Origin: Yuukianura sp. NJ FZ-2021 | Lineage: Eukaryota | Direction: 5' to 3' | Assembly: GCA_046563655.1 (NCBI GenBank) | Contig: CM102284.1 | Coordinates: 8,990,001 to 9,054,000 of the forward strand | Length of the DNA stretch: 64,000 nucleotides | Shown: positions 6,125 to 35,900 of the stretch, piece after piece | Layout of the letters: the number at the start of each line of letters is the position of its first letter | Numbering within the stretch: the stretch's first letter is position 1 | Notes under the pieces: model-generated | Told to the model about the DNA's origin: nothing | Seen by the model: the letters and a program-made list of their open reading frames with translations, nothing else | Database searches by the model: none | Made by a program: the position numbers and the translations under genes

Positions 6125-6178
6125 CCTAACCTAACCTAACCTAACCTAACCAATCCTAACCTAACCTAACCTAACCTA
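6125..6178 (+). repeat. Interstitial (CCTAA)n = (TTAGG)n telomere-like tract
   Basis: About 10 CCTAA units with one interruption. Confidence 0.9.
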
Positions 6179-7080
6179 TTTCTCGAGCAGACTGCTCGAA
6201 GAATATCCTGGTATTTCTCGAGCAGACTGCTCGAAGAATATCCTGGTATTTCCCGAGCAGACTGCTCGAAGAATATCCTGGAATTTCTCGAGCAGACTGC
6301 TCGAGAATTATCCTGGTATTTCTCGAGCAGACTGCTCGAGAATTATCCTGGTATTTCTCGAGCAGACTGCTCGAAGAATATCCTGGTATTTCCCGAGCAG
6401 ACTGCTCGAAGAATATCCTGGTATTTCTCGAGCAGACTGCTCGAGAATTATCCTGGTATTTCTCGAGCAGACTGCTCGAAGAATATCCTGGTATTTCTCG
6501 AGCAGACTGCTCGAAGAATATCCTGGTATTTCCCGAGCAGACTGCTCGAAGAATATCCTGGTATTTCTCGAGCAGACTGCTCGAAGAATATCCTGGTATT
6601 TCTCGAGCAGACTGCTCGAAGAATATCCTGGTATTTCCCGAGCAGACTGCTCGAAGAATATCCTGGTATTTCTCGAGCAGACTGCTCGAGAATTATCCTG
6701 GTATTTCTCGAGCAGACTGCTCGAGAATTATCCTGGTATTTCTCGAGCAGACTGCTCGAAGAATATCCTGGTATTTCTCGAGCAGACTGCTCGAAGAATA
6801 TCCTGGTATTTCCCGAGCAGACTGCTCGAAGAATATCCTGGTATTTCTCGAGCAGACTGCTCGAGAATTATCCTGGTATTTCTCGAGCAGACTGCTCGAG
6901 AATTATCCTGGTATTTTTCGAGCAGACTGCTCGAGAATTATCCTGGTATTTTTCGAGCAGACTGCTCGAAAAATATCCTGGTATTTTTCGAGCAGACTGC
7001 TCGAGAATTATCCTGGTATTTCTCGAGCAGACTGCTCGAGAATTATCCTGGGATTTCTCGAGCAGTCTGCTCGAGAAAAA
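6179..7080. repeat. 35-bp tandem satellite, ~26 copies, with palindromic core
   Basis: Unit TTTCTCGAGCAGACTGCTCGAAGAATATCCTGGTA with variants GAGAATTA and TCCCGAG; exact 35-bp period (6181, 6216, 6251 ... 7056); core CTCGAGCAG-A-CTGCTCGA(G). Confidence 0.97.
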
Positions 7081-8861: not shown

Positions 8862-10995
8862 ATGGAGAAGATGAAGTCTCAGATCAATAATTACACAAAC
8901 TACGAGATAGTAAGGACGAACATGGTGTTATTGAGAGGCCACGTTATTTCTACAAGTACCGTAAGCAATTTGGAAGTTAAGATTGGCTCATCCGAAGTAG
9001 ATACTCGCAGTATTCCTACCGGAAGTATCAGTTGTGTCAATAATTCGTTTTCAATTCTCATTCGACTTTCTGTAGGTACGAATTACATTTCATTGTATGG
9101 AGGCGATGGAGGCCGAGGTCAACTCATTGAGGAAGTTTGTCTGCTACGTGAAGATTGTCATCGTAGCAGCGATTCTTATGTCGTCCAGCCTCTTATCGTA
9201 ATGTCAGATTGTAGTGAAATAGACAGGGGTCACGAGGAATCTCAATTTGACAAGATAGAAACAGGTCTGTCAGTAGTTCAGTGGTACTTTTCAGAAAAGT
9301 TATACGAGGCTGGATTTAATCGTTCTAGTTTTTCGCTTAGGAGAGCTAGGATTATGACAGTTTCACTTGCTCCAGAGAGCATTCATAACATGACCTCCAC
9401 TGAGGTATGGGAACAACTAGCTCAGAAAATTAGAGGTGATCGGACATTGTGGTCAGACAGGGTCAAGTATGTTGCATTCTTGGTTCATCCTTGGAAACGT
9501 GAAGTAGCATTGGACAGGTCAAGTGTTTTTGCTCTGGAACCGCGAAGTGCAGTTGCCGCTGGTGGTTTAGTGCTAGTAGACTTTAAGTTAATGTTAACTT
9601 GGCCAGTGACACTGGACAAAGTATTTGCAACACTCCAAAGTGACAGTAAAGTTCCCGAGGAGGCCAGCTTGACACCATTCCTGAGGTAAGGACACTTATA
9701 ACTTCCAATTTATGAAGAAATTGTTCTTGACCTTCGACCTTGTTTGTTATAATCGTTCTATTTTGACTTTTTAGTACCGTTGGCCGAGTGTTTGGTGCAT
9801 CTCTGGGAATAGTGGCTCATGAAATGGGGCATGTTTTTGACCTTGGACATGAAGATGGAGGTCTAATGGGAAAAGACTTTCATCGATTTGCCCTTACGCT
9901 CCGCCCCAAACTTAAGAGCACTCTAGGAGGTCAAACGAAACGGGTTTACTTGACCTCTGGAAAAATTTATGAGGATCCAGTACAACTCTCACAGGCTTTT
10001 CTAACTTTACTTAATTACAATAGGTAAAAAAACGTTGTTACTGTAAAACCGGTTTGATTAATGCACGGGCATTCACTTTTTACTGCTCGATTTGTGTGCT
10101 TTGTGTTGCATGAACTAGGCAACGACCTGCCCTTGCTTTGTAATTTGCCTTAACACTTACGTTGGTCTCTCTCTGGGTTACTCATGTACTGGATAATCAA
10201 CTTTTTGGTTAAATTCCATTAACCCTGTTTATGTATTTGGTTCCTTTTAACGCGTTGTGTGAATACTAATTGAATTTTAATGTTGGATGAATTTTCAGGT
10301 GGTTTCAGTCCAGTAACGACAAGGAGACAGGATCTACCCAGCGACTGGATTTGGGTTCGTCAGCAATTTGTTTGGAAAAGTAAGTTTGTGTAACGATCAG
10401 TGTTGTTGGATATACACTTCTAGCATTTCTAGACCAGAAACCGGAAACTGGATTTCATCCGGATTTATCCAGTGGACATGGGATTTCATCCGGTTTATCC
10501 AGTGGATTCCATGCGGATTTATCCAGCACTGGATAAATCCGGATGAAATCCAGTTTCTGATGGACGAAATTGAGTTTCGTCCGGAAGAAAGTACTGGATG
10601 TATCCACTACTTTTGAGGAGAGTGAAAGAAATATTATCCAACCACACTTGTTATGGTCTTCAGTTAACATTAACATCAGTTAGCATGACATATTAACTTA
10701 ACATGTCAGTCGGATAGTTGATGTCCATTTTGACCTTCGCAGGAACCTGATCAAGTCCGGAACGAGACTGAGTGTCATTCAGGTACGAGAACCGGTCACG
10801 GGAAAAGCAATTGCCTCTTGGATTGGAACCGAAACAGACTGTAGATCAACATTTGCTCTCTCAAAACGACTAATACCGCGAGACTGGACTGAAAAAACAC
10901 TGGAAGTCCTTGTTCAAAATTCGTCCGGGATGGTGTTAAAACAAAGTCTGGATTTTACCACTCTCCCGGAAGGTCCAACGCCCATCAAACGCTAA
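8862..10995 (+). CDS. Putative zinc metallopeptidase (HExxHxxxxxH; resembles YIL108W-like/Metallopep family), 4 coding exons
   Basis: Exons 8862-9685, 9775-10023, 10299-10379 and 10743-10995 join in frame through GT-AG introns; motif HEMGHVFDLGH followed by a GLM Met-turn; no evident signal peptide. Confidence 0.8.
10408..10606. mobile_element. MITE-like palindromic insertion in intron 3 of the peptidase gene
   Basis: Perfect 31-bp inverted repeat 10444-10474 / 10527-10557 with internal GGATTTATCCAG-type sub-repeats; degenerate outer inverted repeat (TGGATA...TATCCA). Confidence 0.65.
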
Positions 10996-31829: not shown

Positions 31830-32929
31830 CGAACTTTTAGGATATTATGACGATGACAAAACGATTAATACTGGCGTTAATTTATTTCCTTGAGTTTCTT
31901 CCTTCTACCCGAATATCTGGAAGCAAAACAAAATATAAAATTCCACACAATCTCAAACTCACTTCACTCCACCAGACATTTAGCAATAAAAATTACTAAT
32001 ATAAGTCAACAGCTGTCGCTCAAAGCTACCTGTCCTGACCTGTCTTGTTCTTCCAGACTGATTACTGTCTACTGCTGACAATCGTCTCTTTTAAACTACT
32101 CTTAATCAGCGAAGCAAAGTGTAACTTACCAATTTAGTTGCAGCAGATTGTTGACCACTTCGTTCTGTTTACGTTTACTTTCACTGTTTCACTTTCAGTT
32201 TCAATTACTTTTACTGCCACTCTTCCAGGAATTTTAATGAAATGAATGACGAAAAGCGAAAGTGTGAATTTTTTACAGTTACAAACCGGAAGAATTCAAA
32301 GAATTTTAATTTAACAGGTGAGTAAGTCACGTGACATTTGCGCAGTGAATTTTAGGTTCGTTCACACTAGCGCCTCATACTAAATGTAGTTAACTTTTAG
32401 AAGGCCTCAGCAGCTTAGTTTATTAATAGTAATTAGTAAATTAATTACTAATTAGCAAAATTTAATTACTGTATTGTAGTTAGTGATAGCAGATTAACAA
32501 CTATTTCATAGCTCAAATCACAGTTAAATTCTTATTGTTTTTAAAAGTCTCAAAGCGGCCGGCCGGCCACGTACTTTAAGCGCGAAATTCAAATTCCATA
32601 TTGTCAACTAATCAAACTAGTAATTTGTTATTTTTTTCTTGAAAACTTCGAACTTGTGGAATTGCGAAAACAAAAACTGATCAGTTGTCAATTTTTTTTT
32701 TCAGTTTAAATTCTACACTAAAAGAAGTTGAAGTCAAAATTTTTTGTGTATTTGGGTCAGGTCAATCAAGGTCACGAGTTAGGATCTCCGTTCGGTGTCA
32801 AAAGAGACAGCTGGAAACTTACGTTTACGAAACCTCCATATTTTACTGTACCCATTGATTATCCTGGGCTGGAGAACTCAATTGGCTCAAATTGTGAAGA
32901 AATCCTGTGAAAACGAACAACAATCAACA
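31830..32929. promoter_or_regulatory. Divergent (head-to-head) promoter region between CARS1 and SCFD1/PPCS
   Basis: Start codons face away from each other ~1.1 kb apart; position-based inference only. Confidence 0.45.
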
Positions 32930-35900
32930 ATGTCGAATTTACGAGAGAAGCAAATTGGTAAATCAATTAGTAAAGTAAATTCTAAGATTAATTGAAGTAG
33001 CTAATAGTCTCGCGCTCTCTTTGGTCGTTTCGTCCGATACTCTCAGAATGTCATTTTAGATGTCTGTCATTGAAACCCCAACCGAAATTATGTTAAAATT
33101 GAACTACCAATTTATTGTTCAGTTAACGCCTTCGAATAATTTAGGTTCTTCAGCAGGCTCTCGTCATCAACTGTCCAGGAAATTGAGCGAAGTGGATCAA
33201 CGCTGGGAAAGTTTCTTCCAAGAAATTCAGGCACCGCAAAACTACGAAACCGACATCGCAAGGCTTCAGCAATTCATCAAATCACTTCCGGCTACAGCCA
33301 AGGTCGTTCTTGTCTCCAGCGGTGGAACGACAGTTCCACTGGAACAATTCACCGTTCGCTTCGTCGATAACTTCAGTTCTGGAACAAGAGGGGCCGCCTC
33401 AGCCGAAGTGTTTCTCGAAAAGGGCTATCATGTCATTTTCCTCTACCGTCACAAGAGCCTGCTTCCCTTCGGCCGCCATATTGGAAATCCTCTGGACATT
33501 CTGGAATTGCACTGCTCCAACTCCTCCGATACTTCCAGCATTCGTGTCAAAAGTTCAGAACTGGCCAATACCAAGCTGATGCTCCAGAAGTACGAGCAGT
33601 TCAAGCCATCATGTCTCCTCATTCCTTATGTCACCCTCGGCGACTACTTGTGGCTGCTCAGAGGAATCTCAGGGGAGTTGGGTCAACTTGGTCCAAGGGT
33701 CATGATGTACTTGGCTGCTGCTGTTTCAGACTTTTACGTTCCAAAGGCTTCTCTTCCGGAACACAAGATCCAGTCCACAGAAGAACCAAGTATCCACTTC
33801 TCTCTGGTTCCCAAGATGCTCAAACCATTGACACATGAGTGGGCTCCAATGGCTTTTATCGTCTCATTTAAACTAGAAACTGACGAGACTTTACTTCTAA
33901 GTAAGGCTACTGGAGCCCTCAAGAAGTACAATCACAACATTGTCATTGGAAATTTACTGACGACCAGGAAGAAGACAGTGACGATGGTGGAGAAAGATGG
34001 GACGGTGACGAAAATTGACAATCCAGATGAATCTCAGGATATAGAAATCCATATTGTACAGGAGCTGATCAAGAAACACGACGATTACATTGGACAAATC
34101 GGTGACAAGCCGACCACTTCCGACTGAAATTCGACATTCGACATCCACTTTCCGCAAAATTTGTCACAAATTTTGTTAGTTTTTAGCACCGCTTTCCCCA
34201 AATTTGTCACAAATTTTTGGCACTTTTGTTAGTTTTTAGCGCCACTTTCCGCAAAAGTCACAAATTTTGTTAGTTTTTAGCAATTAGTAATTGGAAAATA
34301 AATAAAATAAAAATGGTGCTGGGACTTTTTGATTTCTGAGTGGTCGGTCGTGTGTCACTGACACAAAATTGTAAAAGAGAGCGCGAGATTGGTAGGTTAG
34401 TGTTAACTCAATTAATCTAACTAAAAACTAATTAACTTTAATTAATTAATCTAATTAAAAACTAATTAACTTTTGTTTTTATGTTGCAGTTAGCGTCAAG
34501 CAAATGCTGAATCTGAATTCGACTAACCAGAAACACAGCGAGCCGGTTTGGAAAATTCTCGTTTTTGATCGGTTCGGACAAGATGTACTCACAGCCCTGC
34601 TTTCCGTGCATGAACTTAGGCAAACTGGTGTTACCCTGCATGTGTAAGTGTTAATTAACTTGATTAATTAGTTAATTAACTCAAATTAAAGTTAAATTTC
34701 GTTTTTGATGTATTTTCAGCCTCCTGCACTCCGAGAGAGAACATATCCCTGATGTTCCAGCAGTATATTTTTGCATTCCATCTGAAGACAATGTGGATAG
34801 AATTTGTCGTGATTTGCAATCCAGTTTGTACGATAATTACTTTCTCAATTTCATGACTCCTATTCCGAGGCAGCAAATTGAAGATTTAGCATCTGCAGCT
34901 TGGCAATCCAATTCCGGCAATTCTATTCAAAAAGTAAGAAAAAGAAATTTCACAAAATTTTAGAAAATTTTCAAGAATTCATCTTTGTATTCTGATTTTT
35001 GATTGATTCGTTTGTGTTCCTGTAGGTTTACGACCAATACCTCAATTTCATTTCGTTAGAATCCGATTTCTTTGTGCTACGAAATCAAGATGCTGACCAT
35101 ATTTCATTCTACTGTAAGTAAATTTTTGAATTTTGGAATAGAACAATTTACTTACTTTACTAACAAATACTAATCTGTGTTTGTTTCCAGCGCTGAATCG
35201 AGGTCAGGTCAAAGACACCGAGATGGATGCGATGCTGGACAACATAGTTGAAGGTCTATTTTCTGTTTTTGCAACTTTGGGTGTTATTCCGGTCATTCGA
35301 TCCCCAAGGGGGAATGCTGCTCAGCATGTTGCAGAGAAATTGGATAAAAAGATTAGAGACAACACGAGAGATCCCAGGAACTCACTTTTCTCTACAGATC
35401 CAATGGCATCCGGACAGTATACGTGAGAACCACTTTTCAAAATGAGCATGATTTTTAGAAAAATTGAATTTTTCAAGTTTGTTTGAACATTTAGAATTCA
35501 GCGGCCTCTTCTCATAATTTATGACCGTGGTATGGACCTGACCACTCCACTGCACCATACGTGGACATATCAAGCTCTGGCCCATGATGTCCTTGACCTC
35601 CACTTGAACCAAATCAAGTTCACTGACGAAGCTCCTGCGCAGTCAACCAGTCGACATGTCCCGAAGTCCCGAACGCATGACCTGGACGACCGCAAAGACT
35701 TTTTCTGGGCAATGCACCGCGGCAGTCCCTTTCCAACTACGGCGGAAGCGATTCAGGGAGAACTGGAAGAGTACAGGAAGTCAGAAGACGATGTTAAGCG
35801 CCTCAAAGCCACAATGGTAAGTAGTTCAACGTAATATGGTCAAAAACAAATTGGTCAAAAGGTAAGAAGATCAACCACAAGGAAACTTAGGCTAAACAAA

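Follow-up and report, generated by a model that had tools for sequence, protein, structure and literature searches.

The closest described system to the locus considered here is the Nmnat gene of Drosophila, in which disruptive and compensatory mutants of the intron 4 boxes prove that splicing to the distal acceptor depends on a stem (Raker et al. 2009, PMC2724269). In that paper, conservation of the Nmnat boxes is nearly 100% among 12 species, and introns with an internal acceptor and poly(A) signals are the class most enriched in conserved boxes. The MIMOSAS paper extends this class and places most functional Drosophila box pairs below −15 kcal/mol (PMC13092977). In human, loop-outs by long-range conserved complementary pairs include one at an alternative 3′-end exon of FGFR1OP2; looped-out exons are less often included, and the structure is proposed to suppress intronic polyadenylation (Kalmykova et al. 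2021, PMC8052449). Here we analyze a window of 64,000 nucleotides (nt) from Yuukianura sp. NJ FZ-2021 (assembly GCA_046563655.1, contig CM102284.1, positions 8,990,001 to 9,054,000), in which an intronless gene for phosphopantothenate-cysteine ligase (PPCS) lies in the first intron of SCFD1 (Sly1), between two complementary intronic arms. That the stem formed by these arms is an Nmnat-type loop-out favoring SCFD1 over PPCS is a reading that we hold with belief and doubt about evenly matched. The original prediction, made from the letters of the same DNA, had stated that control of terminal exons by long-range intronic pairing is known in insects, and the arrangement here matches the experimentally proven case of Nmnat.

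A second point of reference is the cholinergic locus, where an intronless VAChT gene sits in the first intron of ChAT, on the same strand, and is expressed from the upstream exon or exons of its host. The exon shared there is noncoding, and both proteins act in one pathway. We know of no bracketing RNA stem described at the cholinergic locus, nor of a functional link between PPCS, which acts in coenzyme A (CoA) synthesis, and SCFD1, a Sec1/Munc18 (SM) protein of transport between endoplasmic reticulum (ER) and Golgi.

At the heart of the stem is a 15-nt core, TCTCGCGCTCTCTTT at 33008-33022, which is the exact reverse complement of AAAGAGAGCGCGAGA at 34374-34388. The features around it, in window coordinates, are the following.

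32930..32957, + strand: coding part of the putative SCFD1 (Sly1) exon 1, ATG at 32930, coding for MSNLREKQI plus one base (phase 1)
32958-32959, + strand: predicted donor GT of exon 1, directly after it
33001..33022, + strand: 5′ arm of helix 1, core 33008-33022
33031..33047, + strand: 5′ arm of helix 2, imperfect, as paired in the minimum free energy (MFE) fold
33143..33156, + strand: three clustered candidate AG acceptors of PPCS, with AG ending at 33144, 33153 and 33156
33154..34127, + strand: coding part of PPCS, predicted to be a nested intronless terminal exon, stop TGA at 34125-34127
34297..34311, + strand: three overlapping AATAAA, the putative poly(A) signals of the PPCS exon, ending 24 nt before helix 2
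34335..34350, + strand: 3′ arm of helix 2, in the GU-rich stretch just past the expected cleavage site
34351..34365, + strand: local hairpin TGTGTC-ACT-GACACA, between the two 3′ strands
34374..34395, + strand: 3′ arm of helix 1, core 34374-34388
34490..34643, + strand: putative SCFD1 exon 2, acceptor ttgcag/TT, donor GTAAGT from 34644

The original prediction had described exact 15-nt arms that could be extended, an inner pairing of 33031-33048 with 34334-34350, and the local hairpin at 34351-34365. Each of these stands, the inner pairing as an imperfect helix and the outer one as a helix of 22 bp (33001-33022 with 34374-34395; 86% Watson-Crick by repeat search), in which three positions depart from Watson-Crick pairing: two are G-U, and the third sets 33004 A against 34392 G. 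The placement claimed for the arms, 50 nt past the donor and about 100 nt before the SCFD1 acceptor, is likewise correct; helix 1 lies 43-50 nt after the donor (core 50 nt) and 95-101 nt before the acceptor (core 101 nt). Folding of 32958-34489, which had been proposed as a check, pairs exactly these arms and forms the hairpin: the MFE fold of the full 1532-nt intron, at −412.7 kcal/mol, contains helix 1, helix 2 and the hairpin, and in the full-intron ensemble the core of helix 1 has a pairing probability of 0.81-1.00.

As isolated duplexes, helix 1 has an energy of −31.3 kcal/mol, its 15-nt core alone −26.3 and helix 2 −17.8. With values of −31.3 to −35.5 kcal/mol between its alleles, helix 1 may be set against the Drosophila box pairs, which are mostly below −15 (PMC13092977). 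With helix 2 included, the two colinear complementary stretches measure 47 nt and 61 nt. Across helices 1 and 2 the mismatches comprise three G.U (plus one in a 4-bp mini-helix), no A.C, two U.U and one A.G, and the arms cofold at −58.5 kcal/mol on the + strand versus −47.0 on the − strand. Before the 3′ arm has been transcribed, the 5′ core has a total pairing probability of 0.18-0.87, scattered over weak partners; in this model it would be only loosely engaged until the 3′ arm exists, which we count in favor of a functional stem. Complementary segments that lie near donor and acceptor and form a stable helix are what marks boxes of the Raker/Nmnat type, and such segments are present here. 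A search of Rfam gave no matches at E ≤1 on either strand of 32500-35000.

Among 1000 dinucleotide shuffles of the intron, none contained a 15-nt exact inverted repeat, the maximum being 14 nt, in 9 shuffles. The duplex between the first 153 nt and the last 190 nt of the intron has an energy of −75.2 kcal/mol, and none of 500 shuffles was as low (mean −41.5, sd 5.1, minimum −68.4). At two mismatches or fewer, the 15-mer has just its two copies in the window, its three next matches each differing at 3 positions; with the extended arms as query, blastn returned nothing beyond chance words in the window or in 46 loci fetched from metagenomes. In a seeded duplex scan, from which a 35-nt palindromic satellite at 6177-7074 was left out, the 69-nt-window energy of the arm pair (−52.3) ranked second among 2363 seeded long-range pairs. 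What sets the arm pair apart is its long unbroken helix together with its unique sequence and its position, and not duplex energy alone. The helix, its calculated stability, where it lies and its uniqueness in the window are direct observations.

The strongest seeded duplex of that scan is a low-complexity one, between a purine-rich tract (GGGAGAGGGA...) and a pyrimidine-rich tract at 886 and 2180, 1.3 kb apart; its energy is −53.2 for the + strand and −34.0 for the − strand.

The exon enclosed by the stem belongs to an open reading frame (ORF) of 33060-34127 that matches Pfam PF04127 at E 2.3e-17; its closest named relatives are PPCS proteins of the springtails Orchesella cincta and Allacma fusca, at 56-57% identity, with insects near 50%. 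The gene content marks the source of the DNA as an arthropod, in all likelihood a springtail or something close to one. Beyond the intron, whose acceptor AG is predicted to end at 34489, the downstream + strand ORFs belong to the Sec1 family (PF00995, E 2.1e-20), and the joined reading of exons 1 and 2 presumably fits the conserved N-terminus of Sly1/SCFD1. Exon 1 ends in phase 1, and splicing it to any of the AG acceptors at 33144, 33153 and 33156 would keep the PPCS frame; by reading, ttcttcag/CAG appears to be the best-looking of the three.

Population data come from contigs of four DNA runs aligned to the region, and they bear on where PPCS starts. Among the 25 differences in the haplotype of run X4 (record 20), which covers 32895-34093, are an A>T at 33096 and a C>T at 33108; each creates a TAA stop in the frame of the ATG at 33060. 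Downstream of codon 30, however, 16 of the 21 differences of this haplotype are synonymous and 5 are conservative replacements. Stops on the one hand and synonymous changes on the other indicate that the body of PPCS is under purifying selection and that its apparent N-terminal extension is noncoding. Between the Met of codon 11 and residue 174 there is no in-frame ATG; the X4 haplotype has no usable internal ATG, and the PPCS start codon must therefore come from an upstream exon. Some 200 nt upstream is SCFD1 exon 1, whose phase-1 end matches the phases of the PPCS acceptors. Together these observations make a fairly strong case that PPCS mRNA begins with SCFD1 exon 1, and we infer that this exon is common to the PPCS and SCFD1 mRNAs.

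The PPCS acceptor is bracketed between the 33108 stop of X4 and codon 37 (33168). With the spliced start, a conserved Trp would stand about 30 residues into the protein, as compared with 13-26 in five springtail-like homologues (P0001-P0005). None of 8 PPCS homologues (5 of them springtail-like, 1 a truncated fragment) has a Sly1-like N-terminus. A search for fused PPCS-Sec1 proteins found PF00995 in 0 of 45 longer PPCS proteins from annotated genomes (E ≤1e-20), so the arrangement is not visible in annotated genomes. The proposal that SCFD1 exon 1 is spliced to PPCS as an alternative terminal exon thus gains indirect support, from the haplotype stops, the synonymous pattern and the phases, for isoforms that are themselves predicted. 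The arms surround what would be an acceptor and an internal poly(A) site, to which the in-frame AGs, the AATAAA cluster, the haplotype stops and the synonymous pattern all point; use of both sites is a prediction.

Two side observations concern PPCS itself. Several cnidarian proteins of about 690-850 amino acids (among P0121-P0126, P0147 and P0149) combine POU (PF00157), homeobox (PF00046) and PPCS (PF04127) domains, an example being 'POU class 6 [Eleutheria dichotoma]'; there, too, PPCS is tied to an unrelated gene, either by true fusion or in a shared transcription unit. In the 3′ untranslated region of PPCS, at 34143-34285, a direct repeat of about 41-53 nt (...CTTTCCGCAAAA(TTT)GTCACAAATTTTGTTAGTTTTTAGC...) can be made out by eye in three diverged copies, while Tandem Repeats Finder (TRF) at default settings reported none there. 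Deletions of 7 nt distinguish haplotypes in this segment, in which run X5 also contains additional sequence.

Among the variants listed, two fall in the arms, and both keep or improve pairing. The change 33042 C>T turns a C-G pair of helix 2 into U-G (−17.8 to −15.3 kcal/mol), and 34392 G>T turns the A.G mismatch of helix 1 into A-U, giving 22 continuous pairs and lowering helix 1 from −31.3 to −35.5 kcal/mol. The T at 34392 is the commoner allele, in 4 of 4 runs. Run X5, which is labelled as a second organism, is without contig cover over 32970-33117, the 5′ arm included.

How old the arrangement is can be judged from a metagenome scan with the PPCS alignment, which yielded 46 loci, of which just one, L001, shares the nesting. 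Its PPCS is 72% identical to that of the window, and from 33168 onward it is conserved at the amino-acid level, with QLSRKLS identical. The intronless PPCS exon of L001 (1-970) ends in a stop, after which come an AATAATAAAA signal and, some 230 nt beyond the stop, SCFD1 exon 2 (1202-1354; 84% identity by tblastn); further SCFD1 exons follow at 75% and 95%, and all of these exons share one strand. Loci of the cholinergic type are recognized by an intronless gene that lies within intron 1 of its host, in the same orientation, and is kept in relatives, as is seen here. The noncoding DNA of the window and that of L001 are unalignable except for the block of the poly(A) signal, AATAAAATAAAA-TGGT..TGGGA. 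Because L001 shares the nesting while its noncoding DNA no longer aligns, the nesting predates the split of the two lineages; by this sequence comparison, PPCS-in-SCFD1 nesting is old. At 50-100 nt before the exon 2 acceptor L001 also has a GC-richer island, at 1096-1148, which includes AAAGAGGGACAGACCG. A perfect pair of 15-mers in an intron that is otherwise unalignable is, judged from sequence, unlikely to be the undecayed relic of an insertion.

Elsewhere in the scan PPCS is interrupted. Its matches are split into 3-5 blocks in L026, L030 and L033, and introns are visible in L044 and L045, all five being arthropod-like metagenome loci; L026, L044 and L045 each have a PPCS ATG of their own. 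Since PPCS is intronless here and in L001 and interrupted in these five other loci, a retrocopy origin is suggested, and the sequence evidence suggests that nested PPCS began as a retrocopy and then captured the first exon of its host.

We propose the following model. A single transcription unit, driven by the SCFD1 promoter, would give rise to two unrelated proteins. Exon 1, which supplies the ATG and nine codons, would be spliced either to the PPCS acceptor or to SCFD1 exon 2, 1.5 kb farther on. Transcription would deliver exon 1, the 5′ arm, the PPCS acceptor, its ORF and its poly(A) signals in that order, and PPCS mRNA would result if the terminal exon were defined and had been spliced and cleaved by the time the 3′ arm emerged or soon afterwards. 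If helix 1 formed first, the PPCS exon, its acceptor and its poly(A) signals would be held in a 1.35-kb loop and the exon 1 donor and exon 2 acceptor brought within about 150 nt of each other, yielding SCFD1 mRNA. The split of outcomes would then be a race of PPCS acceptor use and cleavage against helix formation and distal splicing. In addition, helix 2 may partly occlude the downstream element of the poly(A) site. Historically, a PPCS retrocopy would have entered the intron and captured the first exon, and the stem would have evolved later, shielding expression of the host from the inserted poly(A) site.

Parts of the original prediction fare differently. The idea that the stem loops out the exon agrees with the anatomy of the locus and with helix 1. 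The accompanying claim that pairing hides the PPCS acceptor fails as it was worded: the acceptor lies in the loop and would be looped out, not within the stem. Masking of the downstream element and the three-way junction are fragile components, because helix 2 and the hairpin drop to 0.01 in the X4 haplotype. That helix 1 forms in vivo and shifts the isoform ratio is what we infer.

Several observations weigh against a regulatory stem. In the intron ensemble of the reference, pairing probabilities are 0.43 for helix 2 and 0.47-0.59 for the hairpin at 34351-34365; in that of the X4 haplotype, both fall to 0.01. The bias toward G.U over A.C mismatches (3-5 versus 0) reaches p of about 0.03-0.12 at best. 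Duplex energy of the same order also occurs elsewhere in the window: about 9 pairs lie at −48 or lower (range −53.2 to −48), several of them pairs of GC-rich exons. The variants discussed above are a part of the total, with 94 substitutions and 33 indels beyond those listed, and over 34064-34551 one haplotype is very divergent (42 substitutions and 51 gap letters), so that further changes in the 3′ arm are possible. The PPCS and SCFD1 splices are both predicted from DNA alone. The L001 sequence starts at codon 37, 3′ of the acceptor, leaving the 5′ arm outside it, and none of the 46 loci offers both arms for comparison. At the place of the 3′ core L001 has AAAGAGGGACAGACC, identical to the core at 9 of 15 positions, with AAAGAG and then a diverged stretch. 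Because the 3′ core is 9/15 in L001, the stem is either lineage-specific or has covaried.

The second of these options belongs to a bolder form of the model, in which the stem is a co-evolving binary gate on a retrocopied PPCS that depends on SCFD1/Sly1 for its promoter, its start and nine codons, with arms that covary across a springtail-like hexapod clade. We regard this form as possible and lean against it. If it were true, the ratio of CoA synthesis to ER-Golgi trafficking would be set by the kinetics of RNA folding; the speed of elongation, temperature or arm-binding factors could then adjust that ratio.

The rival that survives best, and which we nevertheless judge unlikely, is that the arms are a functionless DNA inverted repeat, made by a recent inverted micro-duplication or left by the ends of a mobile element; the helix might form and have no regulatory role. 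Exact inverted repeats of at least 15 nt within 6 kb number 19 in the window outside the satellite, a count that speaks for it and against our model; 15 of the 19 have a GC content of 0.33 or less, and the helix 1 pair has the highest, 0.53. The divergence of the core in L001, the sole relative with the nesting, and the resemblance of an intronless PPCS to an inserted copy, given the split matches in L026, L030 and L033 and the introns in L044 and L045, point the same way. Against these stand the age of the nesting, which contrasts with a perfect core, and the two arm polymorphisms among the variants listed, which preserve pairing, as well as mismatches that are of the G.U and not the A.C type. 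There are also 0 other copies in the 64-kb window or the 46 loci, no target-site duplication beside either possible end, and an interior that is PPCS and not a transposase, and contigs of the k-mer graph (records 2, 9, 20 and 22) cross both arms unbroken. The original prediction had itself named ends of a multicopy transposon as a finding that would count against it; within the window and the assembly graph no sign of this was found.

A DNA transposon in the strict sense was considered separately and rejected on anatomical grounds. Its arms would have further copies, of which there are 0 in the 64-kb window or the 46 loci, and the contigs are unbroken at the arms; the flanks, GCTAATAG and TTGGTAGG at the core ends and TGAAGTAG and GTTAGTGT at the 22-bp ends, are not direct repeats, and the interior is a PPCS ORF under purifying selection. 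Back-splicing into a circular RNA was also rejected, the only donor-like site (34391) being in the stem and not the loop, and the exon ending in poly(A) signals.

It is also conceivable, and in our view quite improbable, that the helix is functional and acts on another target, either by masking the donor-like ATTG/GTAGGT at 34388-34397 or by competing with alternative pairings. It would then adjust how available a donor is, or how U1 binds close to the poly(A) site, and not just loop out the exon. The donor-like site does lie under the outermost 7 bp of helix 1 and has ATTGGTA in common with the true donor; in L001, a GTAAAA precedes the exon 2 acceptor by about 35 nt. Two alternative pairings were found, 32952-32968 with 33097-33113 and 33086-33111 with 34388-34413, but they are AT-rich, weak and 77-88% complementary, and they are outcompeted in the equilibrium ensemble, where the helix 1 core stands at 0.81-1.00. 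The donor-like site itself is known from sequence alone.

Some details of these elements are recorded here in their own right. The 5′-splice-site-like motif, with its GT at 34391, is in the outer 3′ arm; the true exon 1 donor with which it has ATTGGTA in common spans 32954-32963, and in L001 the corresponding ATG/GTAAAA is at about 1160-1170. Judged by its sequence, the motif may serve to bind U1 close to the poly(A) site; it may also be a cryptic donor, use of which would turn the PPCS exon into an internal one. The pairing of 32952-32968 with 33097-33113 (17 nt, 88%, AT-rich) spans the exon 1 donor, and that of 33086-33111 with 34388-34413 (26 nt, 77%, AT-rich) excludes outer helix 1; the segment 33086-33113, just upstream of the PPCS acceptor, takes part in both.

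A third rival, for which we see very little prospect, holds that the 15-mers are protein-binding motifs, either GAGAG-type DNA sites, oppositely oriented on the two sides of the nested exon and acting on chromatin or transcription, or CU-rich and GA-rich RNA sites for splicing regulators. The core, GAGAGCGCGAGA / TCTCGCGCTCTC, is a GA/CT-rich element, which we take to resemble GAGA-type motifs, and L001 retains a purine-rich AAAGAGGGACAGA at the matching place. Such motifs would leave the colinear complementarity (47 nt and 61 nt, with helix 2) and the wobble-type mismatches unexplained, and 0 further matches (≤2 mismatches) occur at other genes in the window. Chance complementarity is scarcely credible: the intron is AT-rich and repeat-rich, with many short complementary stretches, but 0/1000 shuffles reach 15 nt, 0/500 reach the duplex energy, and a second colinear helix is present.

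Two further elements were noted in the window outside the locus. The longest exact inverted repeat outside the satellite is a perfect one of 31 nt, at 10444-10474 and 10527-10557, with a 52-nt loop. The 35-nt satellite (25.7 copies, 95% match), whose unit includes the palindrome TCTCGAGCAGACTGCTCGAGA, adjoins a (CCTAA)n tract of 10.8 copies at 6125-6178. CCTAA is the complement of TTAGG, which we take to be the arthropod telomere unit, and the region as a whole (6125-7074) could be an interstitial or subtelomeric array.

If the Nmnat-type loop-out is correct, this locus would be a clean case of RNA structure choosing between unrelated essential proteins, not isoforms, made from one promoter. 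It would also show how a host gene can neutralize the premature poly(A) site of a copy that has landed in its intron, which is a general problem of nested genes. Short and strong, and present once in the window, the stem lends itself to mutation, and the read-out is simply the ratio of two mRNAs. Should the stem prove functionless, what is left is still a conserved nested gene that, no longer having a start codon to itself, has to borrow the first exon of its host. A literature search found no paper about a shared PPCS-SCFD1 locus, as judged by titles and the beginnings of abstracts, and one on nested genes with alternative polyadenylation in Collembola found nothing relevant.

Comparison with the known systems places the locus as follows. 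Transposon terminal inverted repeats are alike in being imperfect inverted repeats, here of about 50-60 nt, around a gene-bearing insert of 1.3 kb; unlike them, the arms have no target-site duplication, no transposase and no other copies in the window, and their mismatches are wobble-compatible on the transcribed strand. The cholinergic locus likewise has a nested intronless gene on the same strand and makes two different proteins from one transcription unit, as is predicted here, whereas the exon that would be shared here carries a start codon and nine codons. We know of no RNA-binding-protein site in the arms of this locus. The human loop-outs resemble it in that pairing surrounds an alternative terminal exon, a predicted one here, and differ in being statistical or knock-down associations, often with an RNA-binding-protein site in one arm (PMC8052449). 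Closest is Nmnat: in both hexapods, a pair of boxes encloses the nearer acceptor, predicted in the present case, of a terminal exon that lies inside the intron and has a poly(A) site of its own, and an intron-intron stem lies near the splice sites. The two differ in three respects. Here the 3′ arm comes after the poly(A) signals and covers what is presumed to be the downstream element; the products would not be isoforms of one protein but two unrelated proteins with nine codons in common; and the Nmnat boxes are conserved and validated by mutants, whereas here the 3′ core differs in the single relative and the stem is a sequence prediction. The locus is a tidy, testable candidate and not a new principle: the class of mechanism is already known, while the gene pair, the shared exon that bears the start codon and a stem placed 3′ of the poly(A) signals seem to be new.

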